From Cyanophora paradoxa CCMP329 (lineage: Eukaryota; Plantae; Glaucophyta): 64,000 bases of DNA. A program made the position numbers and the translations under genes. The notes beneath the pieces were generated by a model. That model worked only from the letters and a program-made list of their open reading frames with translations. It did not search any database and had not been told where the DNA came from. Within the stretch, counting starts at the first letter, position 1; each line of letters opens with the position of its first letter. Shown here one piece after another: positions 5,731 to 28,525 of this stretch. The stretch lies in NCBI GenBank assembly GCA_004431415.1, contig QPMI01000457.1:186001-250000 (forward strand). Reading direction: 5' to 3'.

Positions 5731-5763
<33 letters not shown>

Positions 5764-5935
5764 TAAAGCTTCTTTCTCTCAGGTCGAGTGGCCGCCGATG
5801 ACGCCGCCCCCCGAGCCGCCGGTCTTCTCCCCCGCCCGCCCCAAGCTCAAGCCCGCCGCGGCCGGCTGGGCCGAGCCCCGCCCCTGGGAGAAGGGGGCCT
5901 GCCCCCGCCGCGCCGACGACCGATTGTACATGTAG
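2370..5935 (+). CDS. Host multi-exon gene with N-terminal PH domain, Ala/Leu-rich helical body and Cys-rich C-terminus
   Basis: MLPKSGVVYKRTG..RKRTLTV / FEVHVPGRSLALFACSAEERDAWLAALRA is a PH-domain pattern. Short introns with CTGAC/CTCAC branch sites. Exact exon structure not resolved. Confidence 0.65.
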
Positions 5936-7039
5936 CTTCACTAGTACTGGACTGTACGTGTACAGCTAGGAGTCCTGCTTGGGGCTGGCCCGGGCGATCG
6001 CGATCGCGAACTCCGGATCCTGCGACCACACCGTCAGGTAGCCTATATATATAGCTAGTATACGTAGAAGATTAAGACGTACGTGCCTGGCCATGCATGG
6101 GGTTTAAAGAGGGCGCAAACTGCAATCGGACCATATCCGCAGCACCTCCGGATCCCGCGTAGCTGCAGCTGGACCGCTATTGAGGCCGATCTAAATCTGT
6201 GCAAGAACAGGCCCGCAACCGCGGATCCGGATGAGGGATATCGATGCCAGGGCATGCACAGAGCTGGCAGGGTCTCAGAGTCTGTCAGCGGCTGCGTCTT
6301 CGTGAAGACCTTCAAAGCGAGCGACTTCAGGCTAGGGCTGGAGCGGCCGCGGCCGTCCGACCAGCTGCACTGCGGCAGCCGCCGCGGAATGAAGCGATTC
6401 AACTCCGTCGTCAGGATCATCCTGCAAGCTTCAGAGAATGTCACGGTGTTGGGCGAAGTCGGCCGAGATGATACCACGCGCAAGCTTGCGCTGAAGCTTA
6501 TGGCCAGAAGCGTATGGTCGCTTAGCTATAGTCCCACACTGAGTATTGTGCGCGTTGCTTTTTAATTTGCAATTGTCTCATGCGATCAAGATTGGTACGC
6601 TAAGAGATCTTGTTCTGATTTCGAATTCGAATATACTGCCGGCCTTCCACTCTACTCTAGTTGACTAAAAAACAATTGGATGTCTGCGAAACGCGAAATT
6701 TGGCGGCTCGGGCGCCGCGCTTGTACATGTTTTGCTGCGAAAACCGGGTATGCTAGCGCAAGGCGACGTCGACTCGGATCAAATTTAGACTGCAGCTGCA
6801 GCTGTAAAGTACTAGTGAGGCTCGACTAACTATAGCTACTTTACTGATTTACCACCCATTAATTCGAAAGCGAAAGTACTACGGTAGGCGAACAATTCCG
6901 AGATACATCGATATCATTATATTCGCCGAGAATTCGAAATGCTTGTTTATTCCCCGAGCTGCTATATATATTGCTTTAATTTGCGGTGCATCTCGGGCCT
7001 GGTACATTATAAAGCATCGATACATCGAGATCGATGATG

Positions 7040-10000
7040 CCAATCACCACAGGCTCGCGAAATCGATCCCGGCGCTGAATAAAAGCCCCATACATATGGC
7101 CATAAGCACCTAACAAAAGCAAGATGAGCGAGCAGCTTGTTTTGAATTCGCTCGGGTGGCGGCTCACCGTGATCGCGGACGATTGCAACGCCGTTGCAGC
7201 ACTCGGCCAGTACGGAACGTTATAATTAGAGGCGGATCCGGTGCTTACGAACTTGAAGCCCTGCCGATTGCGAACACCAAAACGTCAGAGAACTCGCCAG
7301 AAACAATGCGCAGAAAAATATCAATCGCAGATATTGCAAACGCACGTTTGCTAAGACAACCGGAGCGAATTGGCTCTGCTGAGAAGAACCCGGAGCAGGC
7401 TCAATGCGGATGTTGTACTGCATAAGATGTCAGTGCCAGTAACCGCAGCGGCCCGGGAAATGAGATACGTGTACGGACCAGTGTGTCGACGGTGAAGAGG
7501 AGGTGGCGACGGGCGATCTTTGGCGGCTCTATGCGGAAACATGTAGATTAAAATAGGCATCGATCGCGAATTATATATTTGGTAACGGCGCATGTGGTAA
7601 CGGCGCTTGTGGATGCGCACTAAATTTCACAATAACATTGAGGCCGGCGCCTTCAACGGTTTCGTCCGAGGCCCGAAGCTTGTTGCCGGCATTGTCGGTG
7701 ACATAGACAGCAATTTGTTGACCAGCCTGCGTATAACCATTATAATTAAATATGCAAAGACCCCGAGAGTCGACGCCGCAAAATCCTCGTATAAGTATGA
7801 ACAGCGCTAGCGCAAATGCAAGTTTAGGACAGCGCTAATCCTGAATGCGACAGGCTCGAGGTCGGAGGGGTTTTCACCTGGAGTAGATTGATGACAGGGA
7901 TGGTGATGAATTCGGTCGACCCAGTCTGTAACGGCATATAGTGGGTAATGATCACGAGCATTTTTCACGAACCGCCGATATCGACTGGATTCAAATTTGA
8001 CAACCATGATCACCTGAGGAACGGAAATGACAAGGGCGGGGTTCGTAATCGCGAGCTTGTAGACGGTGGAGCCAGAACTTTCCTGCTCTTTTGTGTCACC
8101 GAAATATCATATCTAGAGCTACTTTTTTGTTCGAAAGAACGTAATTATAACATACCATTTCAGGCACGAACTGAGAGGAGCTTACGTTTAACTGCGCGTA
8201 GATATATCATAGATTACTCGTGTTTAGTTGAACCGTTGAACCGTGATTGGTATTGGAAATGTGTGATGATATGCGGACCGTCACGCCGTTTATGCGGACC
8301 GAGATAACAGCGGTGGAGCCAGTCTCGAGGGATTTCTGTGCGCACATTAAGTAAGTGCACGTGGGCTTCGAATTAATATTCATGATTAATGGCAATTTCA
8401 ATCTGAGTGAGAGGATTCGAAGTAAAAGAAAGTCCGAACCAGCGGTGGAATGGCCAGGGGCGACGGAGACGGTGACGGCGTTGCGGTCGGCGTGCTGGGG
8501 CTGGCCATGGTGGGCGGGCTAGCGCTGGGGGTGGGCGACGGGATGGCGCCTGCGACGGGCGACGGGGATGGGCTCGGGCCGGCCATGGCCATGGGCGAGG
8601 GGCTTGGGCTGGCCGATGGGCTGGCGCTCGGCGAGGGGCTAGCGCTGGGCGATGGCGAGGGGCTAGCGCTGGGCGAAGGGGATGGGCTGCGCTTGGTTTC
8701 ATCAAAGCGTCTTACACGCGAGCGCGGGGCAGATACGCGCTTGCCTGGCGAAAGGCGAGGGCGAGGGGGCACGTCAAACAGCGGCAGTGAGAACCGTATA
8801 GATTACACATTGCAATTCGGACTTCACAAATGCACCTCGGGGATGGGGTAGGGGAGGGGGCGCAAGAAACTGCAACCGCAATGCAAGCGCGCGCGCGAGG
8901 TCAAAGTTAAATGTAAAACAGTTGAAGATCACGAAATTCTCAATTGCACCAAGTGTCGCCGTCGCGTTCATCCCATTATATGGCTTGGAGCCAGGCGCGC
9001 TGCAACAATCCGCAACGAAGACGACGAGCATCTCGCTACCGGCGGCTGTCGTGTACGAGGCAGTGTCAGCGGGCTTGCCGGAGCGCGCCCCAAGGTTTGA
9101 GACAGCGTTCGTTCCAGGGCGAGCCGCTCCATTGATCTCAAAGATCTGCGCAATTTACATATACTCGAATTCATATGCGCAGCCCGGCCCGCGCCGCGCA
9201 GTGCTTGAGTCTAAAGACTGCAGCTGTGGCCGGTAACCTACCAAATCTAAAAATGCAACGTAAGTTCACGGTTAACGTTGTCTTTATTGTGCTCGTTATA
9301 TATATTTGTGAGCTTAAGCTTCCATTCATTTATTGAATATACTTTGTGGTTTTGTTTTCTTAAGCTTAAGCTTGTTCGCCCCACCGTATGCGTAGTCTCT
9401 CAAAAATATTTGTAATATCACTACGTATACCTACGTATGCGGGGGGTTCGCCCCCGGCGCGGGCCCACCGTATCTATATACTCTCTCAAAAACAAATTCA
9501 AATTCAGCGCACATTGATGTAATCATTTGCGTCCGTACTGAGACCAGAAATTGATAGAGACGGCTGACTCCCAGCAAAGCAGCCAGAACTGGGCGCCAGT
9601 TTTACGTGCCTGCTTGACGGCACGTGCGATTGCGTCATCATAGATAATTGCAAGGGGGGAAAAGAAGACCGAAGGTCTTCCCCCCCTTGCTTCCCGTTCC
9701 CTCGCTTCAGCCAAAACTTTTCTATGAGGCCGTTTTCGAGGTCCAGTATGCAACGAAATTGTATTCTATTCTTTTTCCGATTGGCTCGGTCGACCGGTCA
9801 GCTCTCGACTTTCGAGCGTCGAATTCGAGGGGAAAAAGTGGTTTTCGAGGGGAAAACTAACTTCTCTCTAACTCCGGTCTTCGAATTCCTTGCGCGCTTC
9901 TGCATGGAACCAGTACTAGTTCTCCCTAGCTGTCTCCTCTAGATTTAGGCTTCCTCGCAGTGCGTCGCGTACGCCTTGCTCTTTGTTGCGCGGTTCTGCA

Positions 10001-13000
10001 TGGAACCACTTCTCTCTAGCTGTCAACGTCTCTTACGCCAGCAGAACCGCGTGCGCCAGCCGAGCACGCCTGCTGAGCCGGGCGCTCTTGTTGCACTCGG
10101 CACCCGGTGACCCGGCCAGCAGACTAGTTCGCGTGCTGCACGACGTGGCGCTTGTCCGCTTAGTCTGCGCACCGCGTGCGCCCCGCGTTGCTCCGCGTGC
10201 CTGCGTCCCGTCGTCTGCCACCCGGCGAGCAGTCCAGTTCGGTTGCTGGGCACGGCGCGCCGCTGCACACGGATCAGGATCAGGCGCCGCTTTCAGCGCG
10301 TTACGGATCAGGCTTCTGTTGATTTCGTCACTCCAAGCCTTAAGCTTGCCGGGCTGGCGGCCGCTACGGCCGCTGGCTGCACTGCGGCTTATGCTTTAGC
10401 AGTGTTTGCAACAGCCGCCAGTTACCTTAGTCAGCAGGAGCTAAGCTGAAGCCCTGTCCTTGGCGAGGTTCAGACGAGATGGGACGGACATGTACGTATA
10501 TATACAGGGGGCCTCGTAGCCGGGAGAGATTTCCTGCCGTCGGACGCCCGATGCACGCTCTCATCGGCGTGCACCGGCGGAATTTGCTTACACTGTCCGG
10601 ACGGAGCCCGTCAACACTTTTGCTGGCGCAGGAGCTTAATTCGTCATGTCCAGCAACACGGTCGCAGCGCCCGAGTGCGTGCAGTTTCGATCGACCCGCG
10701 CGCCTGCAAAAACACAGCGGCTAACGCACGTATTCACCGCAACGCAGGGCACTCCCAATTCAGTAGTGCGTGCCTAGTCTTCAGTTGGCGTTCAGCAAAC
10801 TGAAATTATATTGCAAAAATTATATTGCATGCACGTGCACAGGGCGCCGCAGCTGAAGACCACAGAAGTCCTCCCACAGGCTTATCGTCACATCTTCCTC
10901 TGGCGGTACCCTCTCGTTGGTTGACATGCATCTCCCGGCCGCATTGACGTGTACTTTCAGCCTGGAGCGTTTCAACTGCCGCACACTCAGCGTGGAGCGT
11001 TTCAACTTCCTGAGACGAACATTGGAGCAGAGCCGGCCCATCAAATCAATCAGGTTTGCGATAGACTCATACATGCATTCCGAATAATGTGAATGACTTG
11101 TTGCTCCAGGTTTTGCCACCATCGTCGATCGCAGTGCGTGATGAAACTCAAGAGACTTAAAAAAACTTATTCAAATTGCTGAAATGCTATGCAGGAACTC
11201 TCCTCGAAACGCGTGCGCTGCAACGGGAGATCAGCTGATCGTGTATCGTCTTCGGACGAAAATGATCAGAATCACGCTGATTCAAGCCCTAACTTCCGCA
11301 TTCCGAATTCTGAATCCCGAACTCATGGTTTCGATTCCCGCGAAACCGAATGCGCATCCCGCGAAACTCAGCCGTCCGTGAGCCGGGAAGTGCAACGGCT
11401 CAGTTTCCAACATCCCGGACCGCGTTGGAGACCAGTGCGCTGTTTGGCGCCTGGTCCTTAATGCTATCCCTCAAGTTTAGTGCGTTCGCATCAGATGTCG
11501 TGCAGCACATGCAAGCGGCTTTTCACAGACAAGTTTTCTTTCGACCGGCACATGGAGCGTGCGAAGTGCTCGCCGCAGATTGTACTTCCCGACATGTCTC
11601 TTCCAACATCCGCAACGGTCGGCAAGTACCCGTGCAGGCAGTGCTCTATTGTCTGTCCGTCGGCTCCTTCCCTTCGCCAGCACGAGGCTGCACACGCCCG
11701 AGGTAATTTTTGTGCTGCGTTGTTGAACCATATCAATGTAGTGACGTTGCCCGCAATGCAGAGGCCGCAGAGGACGTAGTCGAGGACGTAGACCCGCACC
11801 AAGCGAAAGAAGAACGGCAGCGGCCGGGGCCGCCCCCGCCTCGAGCGCGCCGCGAGTCGGCTTCCTGCGCCCGCCCTGTCGTGCGAGGCACGGCGCCGAA
11901 AGGCTGGAAGGCCCGCACCAAGCGCGAGAACGGCAGCAGCAGCCGGGGCCGCCCCCGCCTCGAAGGCGCCGGCGGCAGCGGCCGGGGCCGCCCCCGCCTC
12001 GAGGACGCCGCGAGTCGGGCTCCCTGCGCCCGCCCCGTCGCGCAAGGCGCGGCGCCAACAGGCGGGGAACCCCGCACCAAGCGCTAGAAAGGAACGGCGG
12101 CAGCGCCCGGGGCCGCCCCTGCCTCGAGGGCGCCGCGAGTCGGGATCCCTGTGCCCGCCCCGTCGCGCGAGGCGCGGCGCCGAAAGGCGGGGAGGCCCGC
12201 ACCAAGCGAGAGAAGGGCGGCATCGGCCGGGGCCGCCCCCGCCTTACAATCATACATAATCTGTCTCTATCTTTACTACTTCAACCTGCCGCGCGCGCTG
12301 GGCCGGGGTCGATCTACATCTGCCCCGTGCATGTTCGTGCCACTACTACTCTTTCATTAGATCCAGATTCCCCCCTTGCACCCCCGGCGCGCCAGAACGC
12401 GGCCGGGCCCCTAGTATCGCAATTGCGTTATCATAACGGATCCCGGACCAGATGTGCAGCTGGTAGTCCTCGTAGCCGGGCTGCACGTTGAGCGTCGTGT
12501 TTACACCAGCAGAAACGAAGACCTCCGAGGAGATGAACCTTGCGGGGACACTTATCCAGTTTGTAGAGTCAGTCTTAATGGACGACAAGTCCGCGGCTCC
12601 GCTGGCCGTTTCTGCCGTACACGTAATCGCAAACGTTAACCTAAATTCCATATATATATCTGCGTATGCGGATTATATAATAATTACCACTAGATGCGAC
12701 GCTCTTGTATGTTGCGTTGAACTTGATTGGGACGCCAAAATCGCCCGGTAGCGATCCAAGTACGAGTAGGGTGTCGGACGAGCTCGTGAACCTCACCGGG
12801 AGTGGGGAGCTGGCGTTACGATTAGAGGCCAAGAGCACAGGGGGCGAAGCCCCCAGGTCGATGACCTGTACATGTGGCACGCGCAATGACAAGTTATATA
12901 TATTGATACTGAGCGCCAGCAAGTTGTATATGATGTTAAATCTTGTTTACCCGGATCAGGTCTCCTGAATAATAATCAAGCGAAGTATATCCATAGTTGA

Positions 13001-16000
13001 AAAACCAGGAGAACTCTAGCTGGACGCGATTCCCCGCGGTCGCCGATGTGATCGTCCTGCAAGCAACGTCGAAGTCATGCTCCATTCAACCTGAACTTAT
13101 AATTATATATGTACGCACCAAACGGCCAAGTCGCTCATCGCGCCCATTAGTTGTTATACGAGGAACGTAGTATAACGTACTTCGGACAGCGTGAATAATG
13201 TATATTGTTACATAAATTTCGCACTCTTTGTTGCTTCGCAACAAGTACTTCTTGGGTACTTGTTGCACCTGCAACAAGTCCTACGAGCTTCCTAAGAGCT
13301 GCAGCAGTGAGCTATCGCTGCAGCTGCTGCAGCTTCTCTTCAGAGTTGCTTGATAGCAGCTTCGCTTCTTGCTCCCATGGCAGCCCTAGCGCGCCCCCGC
13401 GGGCGCCTCCAGCTCTCCCGTTTCGTCCTAATTGTGTGTATCCTTGCGCTCCTCGTTTGCCCGGTCGCAAATGGCGCCCGGGGTGCGAAGAGAGCCAAAA
13501 CCGCGACTCCCTCTCCCAATCCGCCCGATCCGACTGTGGCGCCCTCTGCTGGCCCCAGTAGCCCACCCCCTGTTCCTCCAACGCCCACCCTGAGGCGCCG
13601 GCCCGGAGCCCGGCCCGCCAGTTATCACTCCTTCAGGCTCGAATATTTGCATCGGAACGCATGGCCCAACAGTGCCAACCCCATCCCAGCAGATTGCAGA
13701 CCAAACCGTAGAGGCGTTCAATCAGCGTTTCGCAGCCATTGAACATTACCTCGGCGAAGTGATTGCAGCTCGTACCATAGGTACTGCCACCGCCAATCCA
13801 GCCCCGATTCCAACTCCGCCCATTTCGTCGGTCCCACTTGTCGATTTGACATCGAACAATGGCGGTGAAGGATCATCTTCGGGCAACACTGCGCGTGAGC
13901 GTGCTGCACGTACACGTGAGCCCCTTACTGAGCGCGAACGCCAACGTCTCCACTATAATATTACCCGTTGGAATAACCCTCTAAACAAAGAATTTGCTTT
14001 GGACACTCTCGATAATATAGCGTTAGCCGAGGCCCGTGATTATTCTGCTCTTTATATCGCACTTAGAGACCAACTCAAAAAGATCCAACGCATCAATCAG
14101 CTAGGCCTTGATCGTGCTCTTAGACTGCAAAATGTAAACCAGGCTACTGATGATTTTCAGGAGCGCCAACTTTTGTTAACTGAACAAATGTATCAGCAGC
14201 AGTTGCAGCAGTTTACGCAGAATACTGTCACAGGCATGCCGTATGGTCGCTCACAGAATTTCGCTGCTCGCCCTCCCGGCCCTCGTCTGGCGGCCTCTGG
14301 CCCTACTCGCCCACGGGCTTGCTATCATTGTCATGATCCATCCCATATGCGTAATGTCTGTCCTGCTTTCCGTGCAGCTTGCCAGAACTGCCCTCCTGGC
14401 ACTCGCCCGACTCCTCTGCCGACTCCAAACTCGTAAATTTATTTCTTTTCACATCGATCCATCAGAATATCGATATTCATGAGTTTTTCGCTACTTATGT
14501 ACGAGCAGTGTTTTGACGCATGAGAGCATATCTTGATAGCAGAACCTGTGAACGTACTTGTGTTTTCTTGTGAGTAATTGATGATGGATTCGAAAATCGC
14601 TGCAATTTCTTGATGCCCCAAAATCGCCACTGGCGTGCATATGCATGGATGCAATTCGCGAAATCGCCTTTTTATGGCGTACATATTCATACATGTCGCA
14701 GCTCTGCCCTTTGTGGCATCTGCATGTCTTGTTTTTTGCTTTGAAAATCGCCTATGGCGTGCACTTACATCGACATTTATTGATTGCAAATTGTCAGGAC
14801 AGCTCTGCCCTCGCGTGGCATCTGTTGCTGTATTTCTTTTCAGTGCACGGCACTAGTGCATACTCCCTCGCCGGAGATGGAGATTCGGTCGCCATTTTTC
14901 TTTCCCTTGCGCAGTTCAAGCATCTGGAGTTCAGGCACGCCTCCCCCCATAAATCGCTCCTTGCACTGACTGGCGACCGAACGCATCGATGGCATTATAC
15001 ATACGCATTTTACATATATGTGTGCTTCTGTGTGCCGTTAGAGGCCTTGCACTCGTCTGCAGGCTCTCGGCCTTCGCTCTTTTGCTCTTCATGGCAATTG
15101 TACAAGTAGTACCTCAATTGCAATATACGAAATGAGCGCTGTCCGAATAGTTGTTATACGAGGAACGTAGTATAACGTACTTCGGACAGCGTGAATAATG
15201 TATATTGTTACATAAATTTCGCACTCTTTGTTGCTTCGCAACAAGTACTTCTTGGGTACTTGTTGCACCTGCAACAAGTCCTACGAGCTTCCTAAGAGCT
15301 GCAGCAGTGAGCTATCGCTGCAGCTGCTGCAGCTTCTCTTCAGAGTTGCTTGATAGCAGCTTCGCTTCTTGCTCCCACCCAACCCTCCCTAAATATATGG
15401 ATGCTGTTCTGCTGTCTATATAATTCCCTCCCCTTGCGTGCGGCCTCGAGCCTGCATTCTCGTGCACTATTAATTGAGTGCTGTTGTTTTTTCTGTCAGG
15501 TTTTACTGCTCGCTGTCTCGGAAGTGCGGATGCCTTGGCGGCATGGCGTGCAATCGGAACAAGTGATTACATCCTTTCATGGCTTCAGAACGGCTACCCT
15601 CTTGCTGGCGTCGAGCATATGCCTCCTAGTGTACATTACAATGCTGGTCAATCTCAGCGCCCTCGTGAGAGTACTTTCATTCGGGCAGAAATTCAGAAGC
15701 TGCTCGGTACCGGCGCTATTCGGGTGGCCCCCAAGCCCCCGAAAATTGTTTGCTCGCTATTTACGGTTCCAAAGAAGACTGGTGATAAGCTCAGACTGAT
15801 TTGGGATGGCCGCCCAACAAATCGAGGTCTTCCTCCTGTCCCTTTTCGCTATGAAAATATGCGCGAGGTCATCGCCTTGCTGCGACCTGGCTGGTTTATG
15901 TTTACTATCGACCTCGAGTCGGGATATCATCATGTACCGGTAGACCCGCAATATTTCTCGTATCTGGGCTTCCAGTACGATAGTACTTTCTTCGAATACA

Positions 16001-19000
16001 CCGTTTTACCCTTCGGGCTCTCACATGCCCCATATGCATTCACCAAGATCATACGTCAGGTCATTAAATTTCTCCGCGCACACGGTATTACCGTGGTATC
16101 GTATGTAGATGATTTCTGGTTTGCGGCTCCCACGTACCAGGCCGCTGTTAATCTTCGCAATTTCATTCTCGATCTTTTTCGCCACCTGCACTTATTCATT
16201 AATGAGAAATCGGCCCTTGAGCCTGCACAGCGTGTCGAATTTTTAGGGTTTATTGTAGATTCCACATCTATGATGTTTGAGGTCCCTCTGCAGAAGCTTA
16301 GTAAGCTTCAGGACCGGCTAAAGGACGCAGCTAAGCGCATCCAGTCGTGCCAGGCTAGAGGCGTGCAATTTCAGATGTCAGCTCGTACACTCGCTTCGAT
16401 TGTCGGTGTGCTTATGTCAATGGCCTTAGCTATTGCACCCGCTCGCATTCATACTCGATCCATTTATCGCAACATTGATATTACCCAGCGACAATTTCGG
16501 TGGAATGCCCCGGCGGTGGTATCGCCGGAGGCCCAGGAGGAGCTTCTGTGGTGGCATGCAAATCTCGCCCGCTATAATGGGCGGTGTGCCATCCGGCCAG
16601 AGCGAATTTTCGTTGTTACGACGGATGCCAGCAAGATCGGTCTTGGTGGTTTTGTCACCACCGAGGTTGGCGATCTCTCATTCCAACAACAGTGGACTCC
16701 TGCAGAGTCGGCCCAGACGCCTGCATGGCGTGAGATGACCGCCATTATTCGTGCTCTGCATCATTTCAGTCCTTACCTGCAGCACGTTAATTTACTAGTT
16801 CGCTCAGATAACACAAATGCAGTGCAGTACATTCTTAATGGTGGCGGTCGTAGCCCGAGCTTACATTAATCGCCAAGGAAATTTGGAATTTCGCCTTGCA
16901 AAATTGTGCCTTCATGGATGCTGAGTGGATACCTGGAGAAACCAATAATTTCGCCGATTATCTTAGTCGCTGGTTTGCCCCTGCTGACTATCAGCTTTCC
17001 GATGCTGTTTTCCGTCGCATTGTTAACAGATATGGCTTGCCTGATGTCGATCGAATGGCATTAGCTTCCTCTGCACGTGTCCCTCGCTATAATAGCATTG
17101 ATCCTTTTGACCGCCTTGCAGAGGCAGTAGACTGCTTCACTGTTGATTGGTCTCGTGATTTTAATTATGTTTTCCCCGACCCTGCAGTCCTACTGCGGGT
17201 GGTTCGTCATGCTCAAGCTTGTCGAGCTCGGATGATTGTTGTAGTACCCGAATGGCCCTCACAGCCATGGTGGCCTATCTTGCAGGCTGCAGCTGTGGAG
17301 CCCCTCTGCATCTTGGTCGGGGTCACACAGTATGCCTTTTCGGTCCAACTCGTGCTGCTCTTCCTGAGTGGCTGCTCCTCGCTTTTCTAGTTCAGTTTTA
17401 GCTGCACCCAATTGCAAACTAGTGTCAAATAATTATAAATGCAATCGAGCGCACACCCTCATGCTTCTAACCATACCCTGCAGTGGATGCAGCTCGTTGG
17501 GCCCACATCTGTGCTCGCATTACGTTCTACGCAAACCAGCATCTTGCCTCATCCACGCGAGATGCATATGCAATGTGGGTTGGCCGTTTTCGGCAGTTCT
17601 GCATTCAGCTGGGTGTTCTACCTTTTCCCGTCGATGCTGAGGTTCTAGCCGGTTTTTTGTGCGATATTGCTGACGATGACTACGTCTTCTCAACTATAAA
17701 TGTAGCTTTTTCTGCAGTTCGTAATGAGTGTGAGACCTTGCGCTTTGATACCTCAGTTTTCAGCTCAGTGCTTATTCAGCACGTCCTCACGGGCTTGCGC
17801 CGAGTCCTAGGCGATGGCCCCACTCGCCCAGCGGCCGTCCTTTCGGTCGAACATATTCGCCGGCTAGCGGTAGCTTCCGATCGTGTTCCATCACAGACCC
17901 ATCGTCGCTCTATTGCTATGATCACCGTCGGTTTCTTTGGCCTCCTCCGTCGCTCTGAGATTGTGCAAATTCGGCGGTCTCATTTATCTTTCCGCCCAGA
18001 TGGCATGGTCCTCCGCGTCCCTCGCTCTAAAACAGATCAGACTCGGATTGGTCACGAGCTTTTTATTTCGGCTCTGCCAGGCAACGTGTTATGTCCTGTT
18101 TTTCGTCTTCGTGTTTATATAGCCACTCTGCCTCCTACTGTGGATGTCGTATTTGGACAGCTTCGCAATCCTAGTGTCGCCCTTTCTCCGGCGTCTGTCG
18201 GCTTCGCACTTCAGCAGCTTCTCAACCTCGCTGGTATTGACAAATCTGGTTTCGCCACGCACAGCCTGCGCCGCGGTGGGGCCTGTGCTCTTGCAGCTGC
18301 TGGTGTTCCCGACGACGTCATTCGCGCCTTCGGACGTTGGCATCCGGATTCTCAGGTCTATCGCCGCTACATTCAGGGTTCGGCGCGGCCCGGTCTCACC
18401 AGCGCCATGGTTCTCGCCGGGAACATCCCGACTCCCTTGCCTTCGCCGTCATCTTCGCCTTCTGCTTGATTCCGGCGTTGTCTTTGTCTTTGGGGCGCGG
18501 GCACCCTTGCCGCCACTGCGGACGTGCCGCATGGCGGAGGCTGCCCGCTTACCCTTCTTTTATTATTCATATGCAGATTCATATTCCCATTCATTTGCTT
18601 TACAGCTGCATGAGCATGATTTCTCTTATGTCTGTCATGCATATGATGCATGAGCGCATTCATACTGTAGATTTAGATATAGAGTAGCTGCAGACTTTCT
18701 GCATTCATAGCTAATCATTTGTAGTCTCTAGATCCTTTAGTACTCTTCTTTTCCTCAATATTCTCTTCAACCATTTATACACACAATCATTCGTAACCGA
18801 ATGAATTGTAAACTAGCTGCTAGGAAATCCGAATCTTTGCTGCCATTGTTGTGAGCAAGTGTGTTCGCCTGCTATCAGGAAACCTTCACTTCATGGCAAT
18901 TGTACAAGTAGTACCTCAATTGCAATATACGAAATGAGCGCTGTCCGAAGTCGACATCGACATTGAGCGCCGTCGCGGTCGATGAGGCGATGTAACCGCC

Positions 19001-19087
19001 GGGCGCGACCCCGTTGTTCGCGATGGCCCCGGCGGCCGCAACGAATGCGAGTGCGGCGCAGAGCGCCCGCAGTAGGAAATGCGCCAT
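7040..19087 (-). CDS. Host secreted/surface CUB-domain glycoprotein with Ser-Pro-rich linker, disrupted by the YR retrotransposon
   Basis: Signal peptide MAHFLLRALCAALAFVAAAGA at 19087. Removing 13148-18949 restores frame (VD|MGAMSDLAVW/TITSATAGNRVQLEF...DLIR/VIDLG...FTSSSDTLLV...FNATY = CUB). Second CUB-like exon ~8930-9145 (SEMLVVFVADCC..YNGMNAT). SPSPSASP tract ~8460-8690. 3' end approximate. Confidence 0.65.
8460..8690 (-). repeat. Coding (SP/SA)n low-complexity repeat, hydroxyproline-rich-glycoprotein-like linker
   Basis: Translation SPSPSPSASPSPSPSASPSPSASPSASPSPSP...TPSPSPSP. Confidence 0.8.
11480..12245 (+). CDS. C2H2 zinc-finger + AT-hook (RGRPR) repeat protein, probably spliced/degenerate, antisense inside the CUB gene
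   Basis: CSTCKRLF..FDRH and YPCRQCSIVC...LRQHEAAH fingers; downstream repeats encode RGRPR motifs. Confidence 0.55.
11792..12243. repeat. Degenerate ~120-bp tandem repeat (about 4 units)
   Basis: Recurring cccgcaccaagcg...ggccggggccgcccccgcctcga...gccgcgagtcgg units at ~11793, 11911, 12070, 12196. Confidence 0.8.
13148..13377 (+). repeat. Split direct repeat A1 (230 bp)
   Basis: Identical to 15148-15377 (tagttgttatacgagg...cttgctccca). Confidence 0.95.
13672..14436 (+). CDS. Gag-like ORF with CCHC zinc knuckle
   Basis: CYHCHDPSHMRNVC near the C-terminus; first ORF of the element; true start may be upstream. Confidence 0.8.
   Translation: MPTPSQQIADQTVEAFNQRFAAIEHYLGEVIAARTIGTATANPAPIPTPPISSVPLVDLTSNNGGEGSSSGNTARERAARTREPLTERERQRLHYNITRWNNPLNKEFALDTLDNIALAEARDYSALYIALRDQLKKIQRINQLGLDRALRLQNVNQATDDFQERQLLLTEQMYQQQLQQFTQNTVTGMPYGRSQNFAARPPGPRLAASGPTRPRACYHCHDPSHMRNVCPAFRAACQNCPPGTRPTPLPTPNS
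15087..15377 (+). repeat. Internal B1-A2 junction (copy of the circle junction)
   Basis: B1 15087-15147 = 18889-18949, immediately followed by A2 15148-15377 = 13148-13377 (ctgtccgaa|tagttgtt). Confidence 0.95.
15478..17390 (+). CDS. Pol: reverse transcriptase + RNase H + DAM-like methyltransferase domain (one frameshift at ~16866)
   Basis: KLRLIWD, IDLESGYHH, LPFGL..AP, YVDD (RT). TDAS, EMTA, RSDN, WIPGETNNFADYLSR (DIRS-type RNase H split across frames). DRMA..DCFTVDW..YVFP..VVPEWPSQPWW (MT). Confidence 0.92.
17483..18469 (+). CDS. Tyrosine recombinase of the retrotransposon
   Basis: GFFGLLRRSE, RSKTDQ, HSLRRGGA, GRW, YRRY catalytic motifs. Confidence 0.95.
   Translation: MDAARWAHICARITFYANQHLASSTRDAYAMWVGRFRQFCIQLGVLPFPVDAEVLAGFLCDIADDDYVFSTINVAFSAVRNECETLRFDTSVFSSVLIQHVLTGLRRVLGDGPTRPAAVLSVEHIRRLAVASDRVPSQTHRRSIAMITVGFFGLLRRSEIVQIRRSHLSFRPDGMVLRVPRSKTDQTRIGHELFISALPGNVLCPVFRLRVYIATLPPTVDVVFGQLRNPSVALSPASVGFALQQLLNLAGIDKSGFATHSLRRGGACALAAAGVPDDVIRAFGRWHPDSQVYRRYIQGSARPGLTSAMVLAGNIPTPLPSPSSSPSA
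18889..18949 (+). repeat. Split direct repeat B2 (61 bp), right terminus
   Basis: Identical to 15087-15147. Confidence 0.95.
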
Positions 19088-19736
19088 GCCGCCGCCGCCG
19101 CCGCCGCTGCTGCTGCCACGTATACGCATATACGTCACAGGTGCAATCGCTGAGTGTCACAGTGTGCGCTCGATCGGACCGCGCTTGGAAAGACCCTACC
19201 GCCGGCTACCGGTACCCGTAGGAATATATACTGCAGTCTGCAGCTGGTAGAAGCGAGCGTTAACGGCAATCCCGGGAATATTATATACCCGGGAATCCCG
19301 GCAAGAATGTTAGCGTGTGATCACTGAGCCATCAGTGCCCATCACTCGATGTACAGTCACTGATCATATGCATCGGATCATGAGTCATGATGAGTGTGCG
19401 CTCGACGTCGACCGGACCGCGCTCGGAGGCTACTCGGAGCATGTCCGACGTCGACGTCGACGGTCGCCGAGTCGATGTGCACGTGAGAGCCCACTAGTAC
19501 TGAGAGGTGAGAGAACGACCCTACGTATACCGCCGGGCTACGTATACCGGTCCGGATCCGGTAGAATTCCGTGAGGACCGTGACTCCGTGAGTCCGTGAG
19601 CCCGGCGTGAGGACCGTGCACGTGACCACTGACCACTGAGTATAGCTACGGACTCCGTAGGGTTTTTCCCCACCGCGGTATACGCGTAAAAAAATACCGC
19701 GTATACGCGATATTTCCCACTGCCACGAAACAATAA

Positions 19737-20082
19737 AGAAAGACCCTTTCCGGTCGATCCCTCGGATCATCATCATTGATCATGACTGAAGCAGTCTGCA
19801 TGCCATGATCTTGATGTCTGCAGCTGAAAGACCCTGCAGAGGATGTTCAACGGTACGTACCGTTTAAAAACAGACTGAAAAAAACGTTAACGTTAACCGG
19901 TACGTACCGTTTAACATCCTCTGCAGGGTCTCAGCTGCAGGCATCATGGCATGCAGAGTCATTGCAGACTGATGATGCAGTGCACAGTTGTATGTGCCAG
20001 TACTGACTCATGATCGAGGATCATGAATCATGATCAAAGGGATCGACCGGTACCGGTGAGGCCCGCGAGGGTCTTTCTTTCT
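19737..20082. repeat. Foldback / long imperfect inverted repeat centred ~19880
   Basis: agaccctgcagaggatgtt..cggtacgtaccg mirrored by cggtacgtaccg..aacatcctctgcagggtct; outer arms agaaagaccct..ccggtcgatccct / agggatcgaccgg..agggtctttct. Confidence 0.8.
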
Positions 20083-21925
20083 TAGCACATTCTAACATCA
20101 ATGTAAGTTCCAAATACCCGCGCCATTTGTTTTACCGGTACATTGGAGCGAAACGGGTTTTTGTTCTTAGTGAGTCACTGACTACGGGGGCAGCCTGTGT
20201 CCCGAGTCCCGACTCATGGGGGCAGCCTGTGTCATGAGTCATGATTCATGAATCCCGAGTCCCGAGTCCCGACTCATGAGTCATGATCATGATCGATACG
20301 ACGAAACCTGCCAGCCTCTGGCAGCCTGTGCCGGTGCACGTGCTAGGGGCTGGTATCATGGTCATTCGACGTGCGGAATCCGAGCCCCTACGCCGTGACG
20401 TCTCTTCCGAAGGAGATTCCGAGGGTCTTTCTTCCACTTTTCAAGTTTTTCGAATTCCGTCTCTAAAATCTAGCTATATAGCCTACTAGGCCAGTAGATC
20501 TTAAGTACCGGGTACCATACCGGTTACCGGTAGTACAAGCATCATGGCATGGTGCGCCGCGCACGCCGTGAGGCCTGTGACGGGCCGGGGAATATTACCG
20601 TAAAACACTTAAGTAATGCGCCGGTAAGTAATGCGTTTTTGGACTCGGACCCCCAGTACGGTTAATTATGCGCCCCCGAATTAATGCGTTTTTAGGCCTT
20701 CTGTTTTTTTTTGGTGAATTACCGGCCACTGTGACAGTCTCTAGACACCAGCACTGCGGGGGCTGCCCAGGGGGCACAAAGACAAAAAAGCAAAATAACT
20801 AAGACAAGAGCACGAAGAAAGATAAGACAAAAAGCCAAAATCGACAATAAAAAATAAAAGACACAGAGCTCGAGACAGATCGATAGCGAGAAGAGACGAT
20901 AAATCGAGCAGATCTAGGGACAGAGGAGAACTGACACGAAGAAGAGCCAGAGCTAGAGATACCATCAATATCAGAAGGAATTACATCACTAAGAAGCGGG
21001 GGACAAAATTGAGAAAGATAAATAACAGGAAGAAGACAAGTAAGAGGAACAACAAGACGACATGGAGGCGGAGGCGAAGCAGGACGATGCGAAAGGGCAG
21101 AGCTACGGCACGAGGTCGAGGAGGACACAGGAGGCGGAGCAGGCGGATCAAGAGCAGGCAAAAGGACAGTCAAAGGAATCACTAAAGCCGGCCGGGGTCG
21201 AGGCGGGCAATCGAACTGCAAACGACGGCGAACAACAGGTCGAGCACGAGGACTATAGCTAGTATTGAAACTAACTCTAGCATCAACACTACGATCAGAA
21301 TCCGAACCAGACCGAACTAAACTAGAAGACGAAGAAGTACGCCGGCGCCGGCGGGATACGATCGCGACCAGCGAAGCAGAAGACGAAGGCAAAGGCGGCA
21401 GTCCGGTATCAAGAACAAAGGCCGGAGGGTCCGGCCCGGCAAACCGCCGGAGGGAAGTAGAAGGAGCCGCAGGCTCGGCAAGCCGGCGACGGGTACGTCC
21501 ACGAGTCCGGGAGGAGATCGGGGAAGCCGGTCCCGGAGCTGAGGGCCCAGGAGCAGAGCCAGGAGAAGGTAAGCCCGGCGAGAAATCTGACCCGGAGCCG
21601 GAACCCAGCGAACGACGACGACGAAGAGGCCCCCGAGGAGCCACGACGGGGGAGCTACCGAGCAAAGTACTGACAGCCGGCGCCGAACACGGTGGCGGAG
21701 GAACCCCACAGACAGTGGCAGGCGGAGAGTCCAGGATCGATCGAGAGATCCGCCGACGGGAATGCGGCGGGGGCCGACGAGACGGAAGAGGCGAGGAGGG
21801 AGCCGAGGAAGGGTCGGAGGCAGGGGAAGGGCCGCGAGCAGGTGACGGGGATCGCTGCCGGCGCCGAAGAGACGGCAGCGAAGCAGGAGAAAGGTCGGGT
21901 GGCGCCGGATCAGATGACACGGAGG

Positions 21926-24900
21926 TCATGGCCATGGGCGGCGCAGAGAGAGACGAGCTCGAGGGCGCAAGGGCCCGACGAGGGCGCCGGCGGCGAATCT
22001 CACGAGCGCCAGGAAGCGGGATAGGACCCGCAGATGGGACCCGAGGCGCCGAAGGGGGAGCAGGGAGCCGGAATGACGGGGAGACCGAAGAGAGGACAGT
22101 CTCGCCAACACTCGGAAGCGGGGCAGAGGCCGAGGACCCGGAGCTCGAGGGGGGGAGGGAGGGCGGAGGAGGAGAGAGAAGGCGGCTATTCGAAGGGTAT
22201 GGAGAATCGAGAGCGGAGGCGAGGGAGGCCGAAGTGATGGCGAGCTCTGGAGGCGAGGGGCCTGCAAGCGGATCCGGGAAAGTGGATGCAGACGCAAAGA
22301 GACCGGGGACGTAGAGGCGGGAGGGGCATGCAAAAAGATAGTGCCGCCCAGCGTCACAGTTGCAGAAGCGGGGGCAAGAAGGATGGGCTGAAGAGGGGGC
22401 TGAACCAGGAGGACGTCAGAAAGAGGGCCTCGCAGGGGCGGAAGTGGAGGAGCAAGGGGAAGAGGTAAGAAGGGGTATGGAGCTGCAAGATGACCAGGGA
22501 CCTGCCAGGGAACAGGCAAGTGAAGAGGCCCCGTGACAGCAAGTTGTAAGGAGGGAGGAGGCAGAGGCGGGGCCAAAGGGCCAAGGAGCACAGGGATCAG
22601 GACCGCAGGGAATGGGGGGAAAGGAGCGTCGAGAGGGGCAGCGAGAGCAGGAATAGGAATGGGCCCAAGGGTCACTACAGGGGCCAGAGCAGGAGGGGAC
22701 GGCGCAGGAGGCGGGCGACCACCAGGGATCCCCAACGGGACATTCCCACGAACGGCAAACTCCGCAGGATTCCGGAGGACAGAATCGATGTCACGCGAAG
22801 AGACGAGGTTGTCAGCACCGCCCGAAGAAGGAGCGCCGGACGAGTCAGAATCAGAGCTTGAACTAGAACGATGAGAACCGGCACCAGACTCTGAATCATG
22901 TGCGTCATCATCCGAGGCAGCCTGATCATCAGCGTCAGCAGCAGCCAAGCGAGCGCGCCGCTCCTCCAACAAGGCCGAAGCCTGCGGAAGGGTGAACTCG
23001 AGGTACGACATATTTCTGTCCCAGGCGGCAACAAGTGCGGCGCGGTTGTAAGCAGGTGCATCAATGTCAGCCTCCTCAAGATCGCACCGAGCGCGAGCAA
23101 CCTGTTGGATGGAAAATACGCCAGCAAGGATCGCTCCAAGTGATCGAAGGCAGAAGGCGGGGTTAACTTTACTGCGTAAAATGGGCCCAGATAAATCCGG
23201 AACCGAGAGGATGTGGAAGAGAGAGAGGTCAGGCACTGCGACCTCTTCACGCTCATCCGGTGGAAGAGTAGAAGCCCAGAAATTCAGGCGCTCACGAATG
23301 AAATCCCAGAACGAACGAGAAAGCGGGCACTCAGAGAAAACGTGCACGTGAGAGCGAGCAGATCCGTCATTACAAACCCGACAGAAACGACGGCGGGGCG
23401 ACTGTTGCTCGCCCAAACGATACAATTTGAAATGCAAACGGTAAAGAGCATCGATCCAAAGCATCGGAAAACACTGAAGGACGACAAGATTAGGAAGACG
23501 GGACGGAGACAAGGCGCCGGGAAACCCCCACTTAGCATCGGGCATCTGAGCGTGGCTAGACACATCGCGAAGCCGCTGGACCTCAAGGCAGTAGAAGCGT
23601 CGAACAGAGGAGAGGCGGAGAGGGAGCATACGAGCGAAAGTGAACGCAAGATTATCAAGAGAAAGAAAGGCCGAAGGACCTGCGCCAAGAACAAAAAGGC
23701 CAGGCAGGGTCCCGCGACGAAGAGAGAGGAAGACAGCGCTGAAGCAAACATGCAGCGGGAGCAAACGGGACAGAATTGAATTGGAGCTCGAGGATAGGCC
23801 CACAGGGTGGGAAGCCGCAGGGCGGCAAGGAACGCGCGGTACGTAGTCCAGCACCCGTGGAATTATCTGGTTATCGCGAACGGGGAAGGCAACAAAAGTA
23901 CCACTTGGGCCTCGAAGGAGAGCAAACGAGGCGTCCGGTCCGGACCACCAGAGATGCTGAGGCGGCGGTGCAGGGGCCTCGAGAACCTGGCGCCAAGTAG
24001 CCGGGAGCGCAGAGCACAGACTAGGGAAAAAGGAGTGGAGGGCGGAGGAGGCAGCTGCTGGAGCCCGGAACCCCCGGGCAGCACAATCCCAGATATCGCA
24101 GACCCGCAGCAAGCCGGACCGTGCACAGCGACTCCAGTCGACCTCGTCGCCGGGAGTTCTGAACAGAGGATTGAAGAAAAGAGGTTGGGATAACACTTCG
24201 GGAGAGTTACGAGGTTGACATACGCCCTGGCGCTGAGCCCACTCGGAGAGAGTCTGCTTCCAAATAGGAGGCAAGTCAAGTCTGTCAAGTGGGAGGCGGA
24301 GCGAGACAAGGGCGGGGCCATAGGAAAAAGGTGCCAGCTGAGCGTCCAGTTTGCTCAAGAGGCACTCCTTCCAAGGAGCCGAACAAGAGGGGTCAGCGAG
24401 CAAGGCCACCCACTTCATTTTCAGCGATAACGAAAAAGCTCGAATATCCGGGCAGTTGAGACCACCTTGACGCCACGGCAGAGGAGAAATATACTTCGAA
24501 AGCTGCCCGCTCACGCCAGCAAAAGCGCGAAGCTTCTCTTGCCATGTCGAATACTGAGCATCAGGGGGATCAAGCAAATATAGAGCATAATGGAGGGACC
24601 CAATAAATACAGCCCAGGCAAGGAGAACGCCGGAACGCATCGGCATGCGATAAGTCTTCGCTTGCTGGACACGGATATCAAGAGCAGCGTTCTTTTTCCG
24701 CCAGAACCGAGACAGATCGGGCTCTAGTGGAAAGCCCAGGTATTTTCGAATTTTTTCAGCGGGAGGGAGATCCGTCACCTGAAGACGCCGCCAGGGGCAG
24801 TCCTCGGCGCTAGGCCAGGCATGTGCGGGGATATCGCGGAGTGGAAGAAGGCTAGATTTCTCGAGATTAATAAGCGCTCCAGAGAGCCGGCAGTATTTAT

Positions 24901-27173
24901 CAAAGCACTCTTTCCAGAAAGGCAATTCGGTAAAAGACGAGATTAAAGGAACAGTGTCGTCTGCAAACTGGAGCACCTTGCAAAGAGAGCTAGAGGACAA
25001 GCGGACACCTCGTATACGAGCATCAGCATTAATCAAAAGGGCTAAAAGGTGTGTGCACAAATTATATAGATAGGGCGAAAGGGGGCCACCCTGACGTACA
25101 CCGCATCGAATGGGGAAAGGGGCGGAGGTCCAGCCGTTAATGTGAACAGAACCCTGCAGATCAGAGTAGAGCAGGCGGACCCACTTGATAAATTGGGATC
25201 CGAAACCGAACTGTTCGAGCGACCAGAAAAGGAAGCTCCAGTTAACGCGGTCATAGGCTTTTGAAAAATCAAGAAATCCGAAGCACAGCTGTTCGAGTGC
25301 AGGATTACCGCCCTCGTAATGCATGAGAAGATAAACAAGCATAACCTGGTGCACTGCGGACCGACGATGAATAAAGCCAGACTGAAAGCGGGATACAAGA
25401 CCAGACATGAGCGGCGTTAAGCGGTTGGAGAGGGCGCGCTCGACTGCACGCTCTTCGACATTAGAGAGAGAAATTGGGCGGCGATTTGCAATCAAAGTAG
25501 GGTCTGTTGCCGGTTTAGTAATAGGAGTAATGAGGACGTGCCGCAAAGACTCGGACGGCTGCCCAGACTCATACATAGCAGCGATGTAAGCACAGAAATC
25601 GGGGCCAATCTCATCAAAAAAGTGAACGTAGAATTCAGCAGGGAGACCATCGATGCCAGGAGACTTGGCTCCGCCAGACATCTCCTTAAAAGCACGAAAT
25701 AGTTCTCCAGACGATAAGTCAGAGTCAAGATCAGCAGACTCAGTAGGGAGCAGGCGGTGAGGGGAATAGAGAGAGGCAACGCCAGACCGCTCAGCTAGCG
25801 ACCGATCAACCGCGGCCTGAGCTGCAGCGCCGTCGTATAGTTGAGCGTAATAGGCGGAAGAAAGCTCGAGCAAAGTGCGGGGGTCGTCCGACGCGGCCTC
25901 TGGGCCTTCGGTGTCGAGGGCCCGAAGCCCCTCCGTGAACTGAGCATGAGAATCCGGTAAATAATGCTCAAAAAAAGCTTTACTAGACCGTCCATCTTGA
26001 GTTGCGGCGAAACGAATTTCTTTGCGTGAATGCTGTCTGGCATAGTCAGACACAAGCGAATTCAAGCTGCGCATCATAGAAGTGCGCAGTGTACGGAAAG
26101 CGACATCATCAATAGAGCCAGCGGCGTGGCGACGGATGAGAGCCTCGAGAGCTCGAACAGCGGAGATGTAAGCGTCCTTCCGCCTGCGCTTCTCATCAAA
26201 CTCCCAGGCCCGAACACGACGCTGGAGCTCGGATTTGAGGGCGTCCCACCGACGGACGCGATCTGTAACTAATGGCCACGCGGCGCGCCAGTCACGAATT
26301 ATAGTAGAAATGAAACCAGAATATTCCGGGCATGTGCCATACGCCGCCCAGTTCATGCGCCAGCGACCGGGGCCACGGCGAGAGATTCCGGGGCTTTAAG
26401 TGTGAGATAGATGCCTATATGATCAGAATTGCGTGGCTCGCCGACTGCAGAGTAAGCCGTCCACGGCCGAAGCGAGACGGCCCAATCGCGGAGGGAGGAC
26501 GAGAGGAAAAAATAATCGAGCCGGGACTCAATCGTCCCGCCCGCCGGCCGCGGCCGGCTCCAGGTTTTAAAGCACGCTCTAGTGTGAGGCCCGGCATCGA
26601 AAAGGCCATAACGAGCTCGGATCAACTCAAAGGCGTCGGGGGAGGGGTTCCACGACTAGGGCCGGGAGCATCAGAGGGGAGCTCGTGGAAATTAAAATCT
26701 CCTCCTAAGATGAGGCGGCTGTCGAAAGGAACCACGGACTCGAGAGTATAAAGAAGAGTTTCATAGAAACCGCGACGCTCGGAATCATCTGTAGGAGCAT
26801 ATACATTGCAAAAATAAATGGGACCAAATTTGGTCTCAAACAAGAAAAGTTGAAGTCGAGGACTATCAGCTGGAGTCAACAACCGAATTTGAAAAGGGGA
26901 ATCACCAGGAAAGAGAGCGGCGACCCCCTGAGTGGCCTGACCACTAGGGTTATGAGACCAAAAAGAGGGGGCCGATCCCCAGGCGCGCGCGAGGCGCTTG
27001 GATAATGAGGAAGAAGAAACATGAGTCTCCTGCAGGAACACAGCTGAATGCCGCGCGCTATCGCGGAGGCAATCAAAGAGAAAAGAACGATAAGATTTGC
27101 CTATAGCTAATACATCATGAAAAGCTCGATCTAGTTTGCCTGCTACGTTCAGAGAAAGAAACCTAAACGTCAT
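21926..27173 (-). CDS. LINE ORF2: AP endonuclease + RT + zf-RVT, broken by 2 frameshifts (~26620, ~26355), with long Pro-rich C-terminal extension
   Basis: SLNVAG, FLQETH, NVYAPT, GGDFN, SRLDY, SDH (APE). KSPGIDG, RPISL, LDFSKAYDRV, GVRQGGPLSP, QFADD (RT). CRVC..HVFSECP. Confidence 0.92.
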
Positions 27174-28306: not shown

Positions 28307-28525
28307 CTCCTCACCACCTCCCTCGCTGCACCAGCCCTAGCGTCCACCCCATTCTCCCTCCGACCACGCTCTGTCGTTACGTCTACCCCGCCGATCCAGC
28401 TACGTCTGCCGGCCTTTTCCCTAGGTCAAAGCCTAGCAATAGCTTGCGACTATTCAAGACAGAGCTGACAACTAGAAGAGACGTAGAGGAGCGCGGCCCC
28501 CCCTTGCGCGCGGTCTGCTGCGGCC

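Follow-up and report, generated by a model that had tools for sequence, protein, structure and literature searches.

How does a retrotransposon replicate, and how does it make its enzymes, when the internal copy of its joined ends separates the structural gene from the genes for the enzymes? The question was raised by an element at positions 13148..18949 of a 64,000-nucleotide stretch of Cyanophora paradoxa DNA (the window), which an earlier note had described as a tyrosine-recombinase (YR) retrotransposon with gag and pol/YR in separate cassettes. The reading favored here, if by a modest degree when taken as a whole, is that of a young PAT-like element with the usual split-repeat replication, in which A1 serves ORF1 and A2 serves Pol and the recombinase. 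Sequence analysis of the window gave the order A1-ORF1-B1A2-pol(RT-RH-MT)-YR-B2 over 5.8 kb, with the following features.

13148..13377, + strand: A1, the 230-nt terminal repeat on the left, ending on the A of ORF1's start codon.
13377..14436, + strand: ORF1, Gag-like, about 350 amino acids.
14437..15086, + strand: ORF1 3′ non-coding region, 650 nt.
15087..15147, + strand: B1, 61 nt, an exact repeat.
15137..15191, + strand: cross-junction hairpin predicted by folding, a candidate recombination site.
15148..15377, + strand: A2, 230 nt, a putative second promoter.
15401..15437, + strand: candidate leader exon, with an ATG and 12 codons plus one base.
15438..15499, + strand: candidate intron of 62 nt, with a phase-1 GT donor at 15438 and a T-rich tract and CAG at its end.
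15500..17401, + strand: pol (RT, RNase H and MT-like domains) in a single frame, from Pfam matches and alignments.
17484..18469, + strand: tyrosine recombinase, catalytic set intact, with no overlap with pol.
18470..18888, + strand: YR 3′ non-coding region, in which most variants between copies fall.
18889..18949, + strand: B2, the right terminal repeat, 61 nt, an exact repeat.
18950..19087, − strand: 5′ portion of the host gene that the element interrupts, with a signal-peptide-like start.

A1 and A2 were identical over 230 nt and B1 and B2 over 61 nt (0 mismatches in each), and neither pair could be extended by one base. B1 adjoins A2 with no gap or overlap, and B1A2 is thus a copy of the joined termini. 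Between 11000 and 21000 the next exact repeat in order of length was 31 nt and lay outside the element, and a blastn comparison of element and window matched the A and B copies only (E 2e-117 and 1e-25), confirming the repeats as first described. ORF1, with a C-x2-C-x4-H-x4-C motif, was located between A1 and B1, and RT/RNase H and YR were located between A2 and B2. The 3′ regions of ORF1 and YR shared no homology except B, and a scan of B revealed no clear polyadenylation signal, which counts against the favored reading. A 174-aa frame at 14585-15109 had no ATG-led support and no Pfam match and was taken as non-coding.

A single locus of this form could be a one-off rearrangement or a misassembly of ordinary A-ORFs-BAB copies, and the window does contain single-base errors. 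Four frameshifts, two in ORF1 (near 13587 and 13601, leaving it in two frames in the window) and two in pol (near 16853 and 17300), were considered as decay and rejected as such: all four were absent from the short-read contigs of all four runs examined and are single-base assembly errors. In the same contigs the family was multi-copy, ORF1 pieces began in A and ended in B, and pol pieces began in A (four of four runs in each case); A was a 230-nt unit in three of the four. Depth relative to the flanks, a rough measure, was 5.9, 3.0, 6.4 and 6.4 for ORF1 and 3.2-7.7 for pol. Joints from ORF1 to pol that skip the internal junction were absent among the eight joints listed, and in the window a single B follows YR before host DNA resumes. 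One condition under which the earlier note was to be abandoned, a one-off rearrangement, was therefore not borne out, and domain positions and short-read contigs agreed on separate A...B cassettes. A rearranged or misassembled locus would also fit the finding that no contig crossed B1|A2 among the 32 short-read pieces listed, a further 621 lying outside the listing, so that this adjacency rests on the window and the cross-junction hairpin; on balance such an origin is very improbable. In contigs built from 31-mers no particular ORF1 can be tied to a particular pol, and solo or permuted copies could go unseen. The element is intact, young and multi-copy, and the A-ORF1-BA-pol-YR-B layout is very probably the norm of its family. 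At least 20 public DNA runs contain the family, and four possible RNA runs contain 0.03-0.05 of the element's words.

Assignment to the PAT-like tyrosine-recombinase retrotransposons can be made with near certainty. Pol contained RT and RNase H of the DIRS type (Pfam 7e-18 and 1e-8), and an MT-like domain followed RNase H, as in PAT-like elements. The Pfam Dam (MT) model did not match the window's own MT piece; it matched 8 of 13 aligned members, and the window's piece aligned to every one of the 18 Dam-annotated pols examined, at E 1e-8 to 1e-25. The MT motifs are altered, with DRMA and FPDP here versus DLFA and xPPF/Y/W in most of these 18 pols. YR (Pfam 8.5e-9), between A2 and B2 and on the same strand as pol, had the PAT-like residue set R-K-H-R-W-Y, with R161, K187, H264, R267, W290 and Y300 invariant in seven of seven aligned sequences, and its top PDB match was Cre (E 1e-22). 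The split direct repeats stand in the PAT-like order A1, B1A2, B2. Neither DIRS1-like inverted terminal repeats nor an internal complementary region was present, the longest end-touching inverted match being 13 nt and part of the junction hairpin, and the element did not conform to the Ngaro type, which has no MT domain and a junction 3′ of YR. The internal junction was found neither 3′ of YR nor between MT and YR, the positions described, but between ORF1 and pol. Since junction position varies within the PAT-like family, the odd position marks a variant and does not exclude the element; repeats, domains and junction together uphold the original identification of a PAT-like element with an unusually placed junction.

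ORF1 comprises a signal-peptide- or anchor-like N-terminus, a Pro-rich linker, a helical core and a CCHC knuckle near the C-terminus. The CCHC motif, as expected of a Gag-like ORF1, was present in the window's protein and in its relative P0139, which was the only full-length match in a profile search of 1.84 billion representatives. Matches of ORF1 to zf-CCHC clusters in the atlas (0.78-0.81) serve as leads only, and a structure model from three sequences (pLDDT 40.6) was unusable, with no capsid fold visible. The hydrophobic, signal-peptide-like N-terminus is conserved, which would be unusual in a Gag; a literature search for a Gag with such a conserved start found nothing related.

The element is inserted in a host coding exon without target-site duplication: the repeats are not extendable, and the host frame is continuous, running from 18950..19087 (− strand) through the empty site to 13147 and lower positions. 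A hinted target is CCCAT|G. An element-free contig joined 13060 to 19009 at flank-level depth in three of four runs. Folding of the joined ends pairs the last 11 nt of B with A nt 34-44, enclosing an inner stem within A and placing the B|A join at the bulge between the two stems. The z-score of the DNA fold at B1|A2 was −5.5; those of the RNA fold were −5.2 at B1|A2, −1.3 at the right end and +0.3 at the left end. The predicted hairpin needs B and A to be joined and does not form from the separate ends, and it is a candidate recombination site. A lox-type site centered on the inner palindrome was rejected, the element boundary lying about 17 nt from the palindrome center.

Under the replication model for split-repeat elements, an RNA that starts within A1, reads through and ends within B2 would be reverse-transcribed, and B1A2 would template the missing end bases. 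Such restoration would work regardless of the position of B1A2. The joined ends would then fold as stem-bulge-stem, and the Cre-like recombinase would join the hairpin to the target at the bulge. The claim that a modified replication model is needed was not supported, since the junction would merely have to lie within the transcript for ordinary replication to suffice. Ordinary split-direct-repeat replication is accordingly considered likely. In favor of the main reading as a whole, the excerpted text of PMC4157794 describes known PAT elements with genes to either side of the junction.

The two halves might instead be separate integrating circles, A-ORF1-B (2.0 kb) and A-pol-YR-B (3.8 kb), with the full form as their co-integrate, a 5.8-kb circle whose two identical junctions could be resolved by the recombinase. 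Each half has the same A and B at its ends, the 3′ regions of the two are unrelated, and the pol/ORF1 depth ratio was 1.02-1.27, with pol higher in all four runs, suggesting that ORF1-less copies probably exist. However, ordinary deletion between A1 and A2, or truncation, would also give a higher pol depth, and Cafeteria Ngaros of ordinary layout are known to include ORF1-less derivatives (PMC8547959, in excerpt). Depths so nearly equal are unlike those of independent segments, a solo unit would be missing the internal junction with which to rebuild its ends in cis, and two junctions would occur in the circles of all split-repeat elements and would hence not be special. A bipartite element is thus unlikely. 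Similarly doubtful is the broader proposal of a retroelement becoming segmented, with permuted A-pol-BA-ORF1-B copies, independently moving 2.0-kb and 3.8-kb segments, a folded single-stranded junction and a membrane-anchored, unfused Gag; were it true, each half would be a self-contained A...B unit and the recombinase would integrate at either junction.

The enzyme genes open without a start codon. No in-frame ATG lies ahead of the conserved N-terminus of pol; the first (15619) falls within the conserved domain and was altered in the main contig in two of four runs. The first in-frame ATG of YR (17573) is inside its N-terminal domain, with no start codon before the conserved part. Two expression units with A as promoter are plausible from the sequence. 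Most transcripts from A1 would stop at B1 and serve ORF1. Those from A2 would be translated from the ATG at 15401, and the donor at 15438 would be joined in frame either to 15499, giving Pol, or to 17483, giving YR. In support of splicing, the similarity of P0121 to pol starts at the proposed acceptor; against it, the glycine motif found there opens many DIRS pols, with AG at this position in only two of three distant loci with DNA. CTAAC (17467) and a phase-1 CAG at 17483 precede YR. Also counting against splicing, the YR acceptor fell below the pyrimidine cut-off used; phase-1 acceptor-like sites occurred at 14 of 1067 codons, so that one near an ORF start would arise by chance about once in eight cases. 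Production of spliced Pol and YR from A2 is given an even chance.

The same acceptors would also serve if A1 drove all expression and Pol and YR were ORF1 fusions spliced over B1A2 to 15499 or 17483. Phase-1 donors in ORF1 at 13483, 13895, 13916 or 14351 are in phase with both acceptors, and a Gag-Pol fusion is the usual route to package RT, which speaks for a single promoter. Yet A2 is identical to A1 and should fire too, every enzyme message would need read-through of B1, and the fusion would carry the conserved hydrophobic N-terminus of ORF1, which is awkward for a nuclear recombinase. Splicing would remove the junction from such messages, which could then not serve as templates for new elements. 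Expression from A1 alone is possible, though rather unlikely. Less probable by far is a −1 ribosomal frameshift, in place of splicing, at the T TTT TTC heptamer at 15487-15493. The heptamer is in the frame of the ATG at 15401, within the candidate intron and the overlap of the two frames. Against frameshifting, no stable fold was predicted downstream (z +1.15), P0121 has F-G-F-G-L at the position of the T run, which is thus not kept, and the start of YR would be left unexplained.

In a tree the element grouped with Closterium pols in a clade of 41 rows (support 0.94), no named PAT, kangaroo or Toc3 being included. It was apart from fish pols and from two loci with inverted terminal repeats or an internal complementary region (L002 and L003), and Ngaro-like loci formed a long separate branch. 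Sister-family pol/YR relatives, 74-81% identical, were found on Logan contigs 3650 and 3626 nt long; for ORF1 there was a single relative, on a 1578-nt Logan contig. The matching pieces here were 3571 nt and 1769 nt, respectively, and SNP breaks may set the sizes of the relatives. A metagenome scan yielded nine distant loci (23-35% identity): L002 had inverted ends and an internal complementary region, L003 had the same right end, L006, L007 and L009 looked Ngaro-like, and the remaining loci were partial. A scan of prokaryote genomes yielded one locus, with inverted ends. The ORF1|pol junction layout was present in none of the ten pol-bearing loci with DNA, all distant. Among viral contigs, none had two pol alignments, and none of the 21 phage-type integrase loci with a YR alignment had a related RT.

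To our knowledge, the expression of start-less enzyme genes and the use of the internal end junction in YR retrotransposons are largely untested outside DIRS-1. This family suits both questions, being young and low-copy, with non-overlapping genes and a presence in many public DNA runs. A junction between structural and enzyme genes likely permits separate expression of the halves, with replication probably as proposed for relatives. As both halves are complete A...B units, a catalog of copies could reveal whether the recombinase can use the internal junction, as solo or permuted copies would indicate, and if Pol requires ORF1 upstream.

The premise of the earlier note that the internal junction lies 3′ of all ORFs held for Ngaro and failed for nematode PAT and kangaroo, in which it lies between MT and YR; junction position is thus known to move, and PMC4157794 (in excerpt) scores "translocation of the internal repeats" as a character. 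No description of a gag|pol internal junction was found in the literature covered; Repbase and the primary PAT, kangaroo and TOC1 papers, which lie outside it, may list one. DIRS-1 of Dictyostelium shares RT-RH-MT and YR and completes replication via an internal copy of the joined ends, and its cDNA has been observed as single strands; unlike the present element, it has inverted terminal repeats, an internal complementary region and overlapping ORFs (PMC7192593, in excerpt). Ngaro and VIPER share split direct repeats and YR integration and differ in having no MT domain and a junction 3′ of all ORFs (excerpts of PMC8547959, PMC6681497 and PMC9210276); like the element, VIPER/TATE have no target duplication reported in the excerpted PMC12278014. 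Toc3, echinoderm-form Pat1 and Ectocarpus PAT-like families have the same domain set and gene order (excerpts of PMC4157794 and PMC12477816), although Toc3 is described without a zinc finger in the former. In the excerpted PMC12477816, A-int-BAB, unlike the layout here, is given for all three Ectocarpus PAT rows that carry a repeat note and for 12 of 14 Ectocarpus split-repeat rows overall, and one gene-less family is A-gap-BA-gap-B. Two further comparisons come from the excerpt of PMC4157794. Kangaroo of Volvox carteri is alike in its PAT group, its MT domain and an internal junction upstream of a coding region, and unlike in its inverted YR, its lack of a Gag zinc finger and its junction between MT and YR. 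Nematode-form Pat1-like elements (PAT, Panagrellus redivivus) share split direct repeats, RT-RH-MT, a same-strand YR, a Gag zinc knuckle and coding DNA to either side of the internal junction, which in them lies between MT and YR. With the junction between ORF1 and pol, all enzymes lie downstream of A2 here, unlike in nematode-form Pat1. The element is a layout variant of PAT-like retrotransposons, new against the literature covered as to the position of its junction.

The split repeats of the element proposed in the earlier note were confirmed exactly: A1 and A2 (230 nt) and B1 and B2 (61 nt) each matched with 0 mismatches and without extension, and B1 directly adjoined A2. Apart from B, the 3′ non-coding regions of ORF1 and YR had nothing in common, and no additional copy or fragment of the element was found elsewhere in the 64-kb window. 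The features are as follows.

13148-13377 and 15148-15377: A1 and A2
15087-15147 and 18889-18949: B1 and B2
A1-B1 interval: ORF1 with a CCHC knuckle
A2-B2 interval: RT/RNase H and tyrosine recombinase (YR)
minus strand, about 12350-13147 and 18950-19087: host gene broken by the element, its start resembling a signal peptide
about 20800-28340, minus strand: LINE-type element comprising an endonuclease piece, an RT frame of 1489 aa and an upstream ORF

The earlier note had raised the possibility that the layout is a one-off rearrangement of this locus. Of the 24 sequencing runs listed, 20 contained the element's words at a fraction of 0.91 or more, and short-read (31-mer) contigs were examined for four of these. 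In all four, ORF1 contigs started 30 nt within A and stopped 30 nt within B, and pol contigs began within A; the layout belongs to a family and is no accident. Repeat A formed a separate contig of exactly 230 nt in three of the four runs, and a contig ending in B2 was seen in one run among the pieces listed. Of the eight joints listed, a single one lay inside the element, a 64-nt YR deletion (two runs); none of the eight bypassed the internal junction, but contigs show presence rather than absence and a rare canonical copy could escape. As to solo or permuted copies, 31-mer contigs do not link a particular ORF1 to a particular pol. For ORF1, depth as a multiple of the flanks was 5.9, 3.0, 6.4 and 6.4; for pol/YR it was 3.2-7.7, and the pol/ORF1 ratio was 1.02-1.27. 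Contig depth is not copy number, but these values point to several copies of the element, some of them probably without ORF1.

Searches returned 150 relatives of pol at E 1e-20 or better (78-81% identity in three of the 120 listed), six of YR at 1e-25 and one of ORF1 (P0139). The longest contig was 3650 nt for both pol P0121 and YR P0133 and 3626 nt for both pol P0003 and YR P0135, and P0139 lay on a 1578-nt contig; the matching pieces of the window element were 3571 nt (pol/YR side) and 1769 nt (ORF1 side). These sizes, which SNP breaks may also shape, fit sister families sharing the layout. In an RT-RH tree of 120 rows, which contained no named PAT and left out proteins below 380 aa and loci L005, L008, L009 and L010, the element grouped with its close relatives (support 1.0) within a 41-row clade (support 0.94) that included Closterium pols and was separate from inverted-end loci and from fish pols. 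Locus L010 carries a DIRS1-like element with inverted ends (5076-9468) amid eukaryote-like repeats; the contig, 2.56 Mb long, bears a Nitrospirales MAG label, and the locus probably represents host DNA that entered a bacterial assembly. The MT-like domain (16854-17401) has altered motifs, DRMA and FPDP, common to pol relatives P0001-P0004, in place of the DLFA and xPPF/Y/W of most Dam-annotated pols; it is possibly inactive or of changed specificity. A PTPLP-type tail ends both ORF1 (14410-14436) and YR (18425-18469) and is kept in P0139 and P0135.

The element is intact and young. Four frameshifts in the window (near 13587, 13601, 16853 and 17300) were contradicted by contigs in all four runs and are therefore assembly errors; relatives confirmed a single RT-RH-MT frame and a single ORF1 frame from ATG 13377. 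The YR catalytic set was kept in 7 of 7 aligned sequences, and Cre was the top solved-structure match. The element sits antisense in a host gene with a secreted-protein-like start, whose frame reads on across the empty site, so there was no target duplication. Intron candidates in and near this gene were very short (24-50 nt) and AT-rich, and diverged homologous pieces of the gene occurred in the runs; an element-free contig joining 13060 to 19009 at flank-level depth in three of four runs is a diverged allele or paralog. The left-flank contig ended 5 nt short of the element in three of four runs and the right-flank contig began 1 nt late in all three runs listing it, a weak hint that another copy, too, has CCCAT in front of its A and G behind its B.

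Around the element, a very high-copy short repeat (12244-12417; depth about 200 times flank) follows a GC-rich array (11790-12255) whose units are 120-160 nt long, and a joint 12417-19441 was found in all four runs. Short palindromes crowd the non-coding stretch 19150-20700, which also contains a long inverted repeat (19795-19957). From about 28900 to 64000 the window is AT-rich (about 40% GC) and gene-dense with long internal duplications, broken up by a GC-rich tandem array at about 38900-40400. Its genes include those for an A32 packaging ATPase and a patatin as well as HNH-AP2, zinc-finger and fibre-like genes, and the region resembles an endogenous DNA virus. A capsid gene was not among the genes identified, and the ATPase had no relative among the viral contigs searched.

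The ORF1 start codon opens on the final base of A. Neither pol nor YR has an ATG ahead of its conserved parts; the first in-frame ATGs are 15619 (pol; altered in the main contig of two of four runs) and 17573 (YR). Each of the two frames begins at a CAG in phase 1, that of pol at 15499 after a T-rich tract and that of YR at 17483 after CTAAC. From ATG 15401, 24 nt past A2, a candidate donor at 15438 could be spliced to the candidate pol or YR acceptor, in frame either way, with a pol intron of 62 nt as against 24-50 nt for the nearby host intron candidates; similarity to P0121 begins at the candidate pol acceptor. Against splicing, 14 of 1067 codons had acceptor-like phase-1 sites, the candidate YR acceptor fell below the pyrimidine cut-off applied, AG was at the equivalent place in only two of three distant loci with DNA, and in-phase donors exist in ORF1 too. 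The A-G-R/T-L motif opening DIRS pols is written CAG/G in distant loci L004 and L005, not in L002, and may be a general splice acceptor. The first 35 residues of ORF1 (13377-13490) resemble a signal peptide or membrane anchor (15-residue mean hydropathy 3.3); the segment is conserved in P0139 (residues 1-35, mean 2.9), which argues against ORF1 fusions. The literature search found nothing relevant on a Gag-like ORF1 with such a start.

On the split-repeat replication model, ordinary replication of such an element would suffice, and the modified model that the earlier note had raised appears unnecessary. When joined, B and A fold into a stem-bulge-stem hairpin: A nt 34-44 are base-paired to the final 11 nt of B, with the B-A join at the bulge. 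As DNA, the hairpin scored z -5.5 and the whole BA z -8.2; as RNA, the fold scored -5.2 at B1A2, compared with -1.3 at the right end of the element and +0.3 at its left end. Since DIRS-1 cDNA was observed as single strands (PMC7192593, available text), the folded junction could plausibly be a recombinase substrate.

The element is real, intact and PAT-like by each defining feature tested except junction position. The premise that PAT, kangaroo and Ngaro elements usually carry the junction 3′ of all ORFs held only in part: in the available text of PMC4157794, nematode Pat1 and kangaroo have internal repeats between MT and YR, and translocation of internal repeats is a scored character. A1-internal-B1-A2-B2 is the commonest arrangement, with others existing (PMC8969392, available text), and an Ectocarpus table (PMC12477816 supplement) has A-int-BAB in 12 of 14 split-repeat rows and A-gap-BA-gap-B in one gene-less family. 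An internal junction placed between gag and pol was absent from the portions available of PMC8547959, PMC6681497, PMC3783388, PMC3266345, PMC9210276, PMC12278014, PMC9940879, PMC5613634 and bioRxiv 2026.05.21.726589, and this layout was not found in the literature searched, in the text accessible; Repbase, the Chlamydomonas supplement and the primary PAT, kangaroo and TOC1 accounts may record it. With this layout come two complete A...B units, through which expression and use of the junction become testable. Junction position varies within the PAT-like family, and the one in the window element, between ORF1 (gag) and pol, appears to be a third position.
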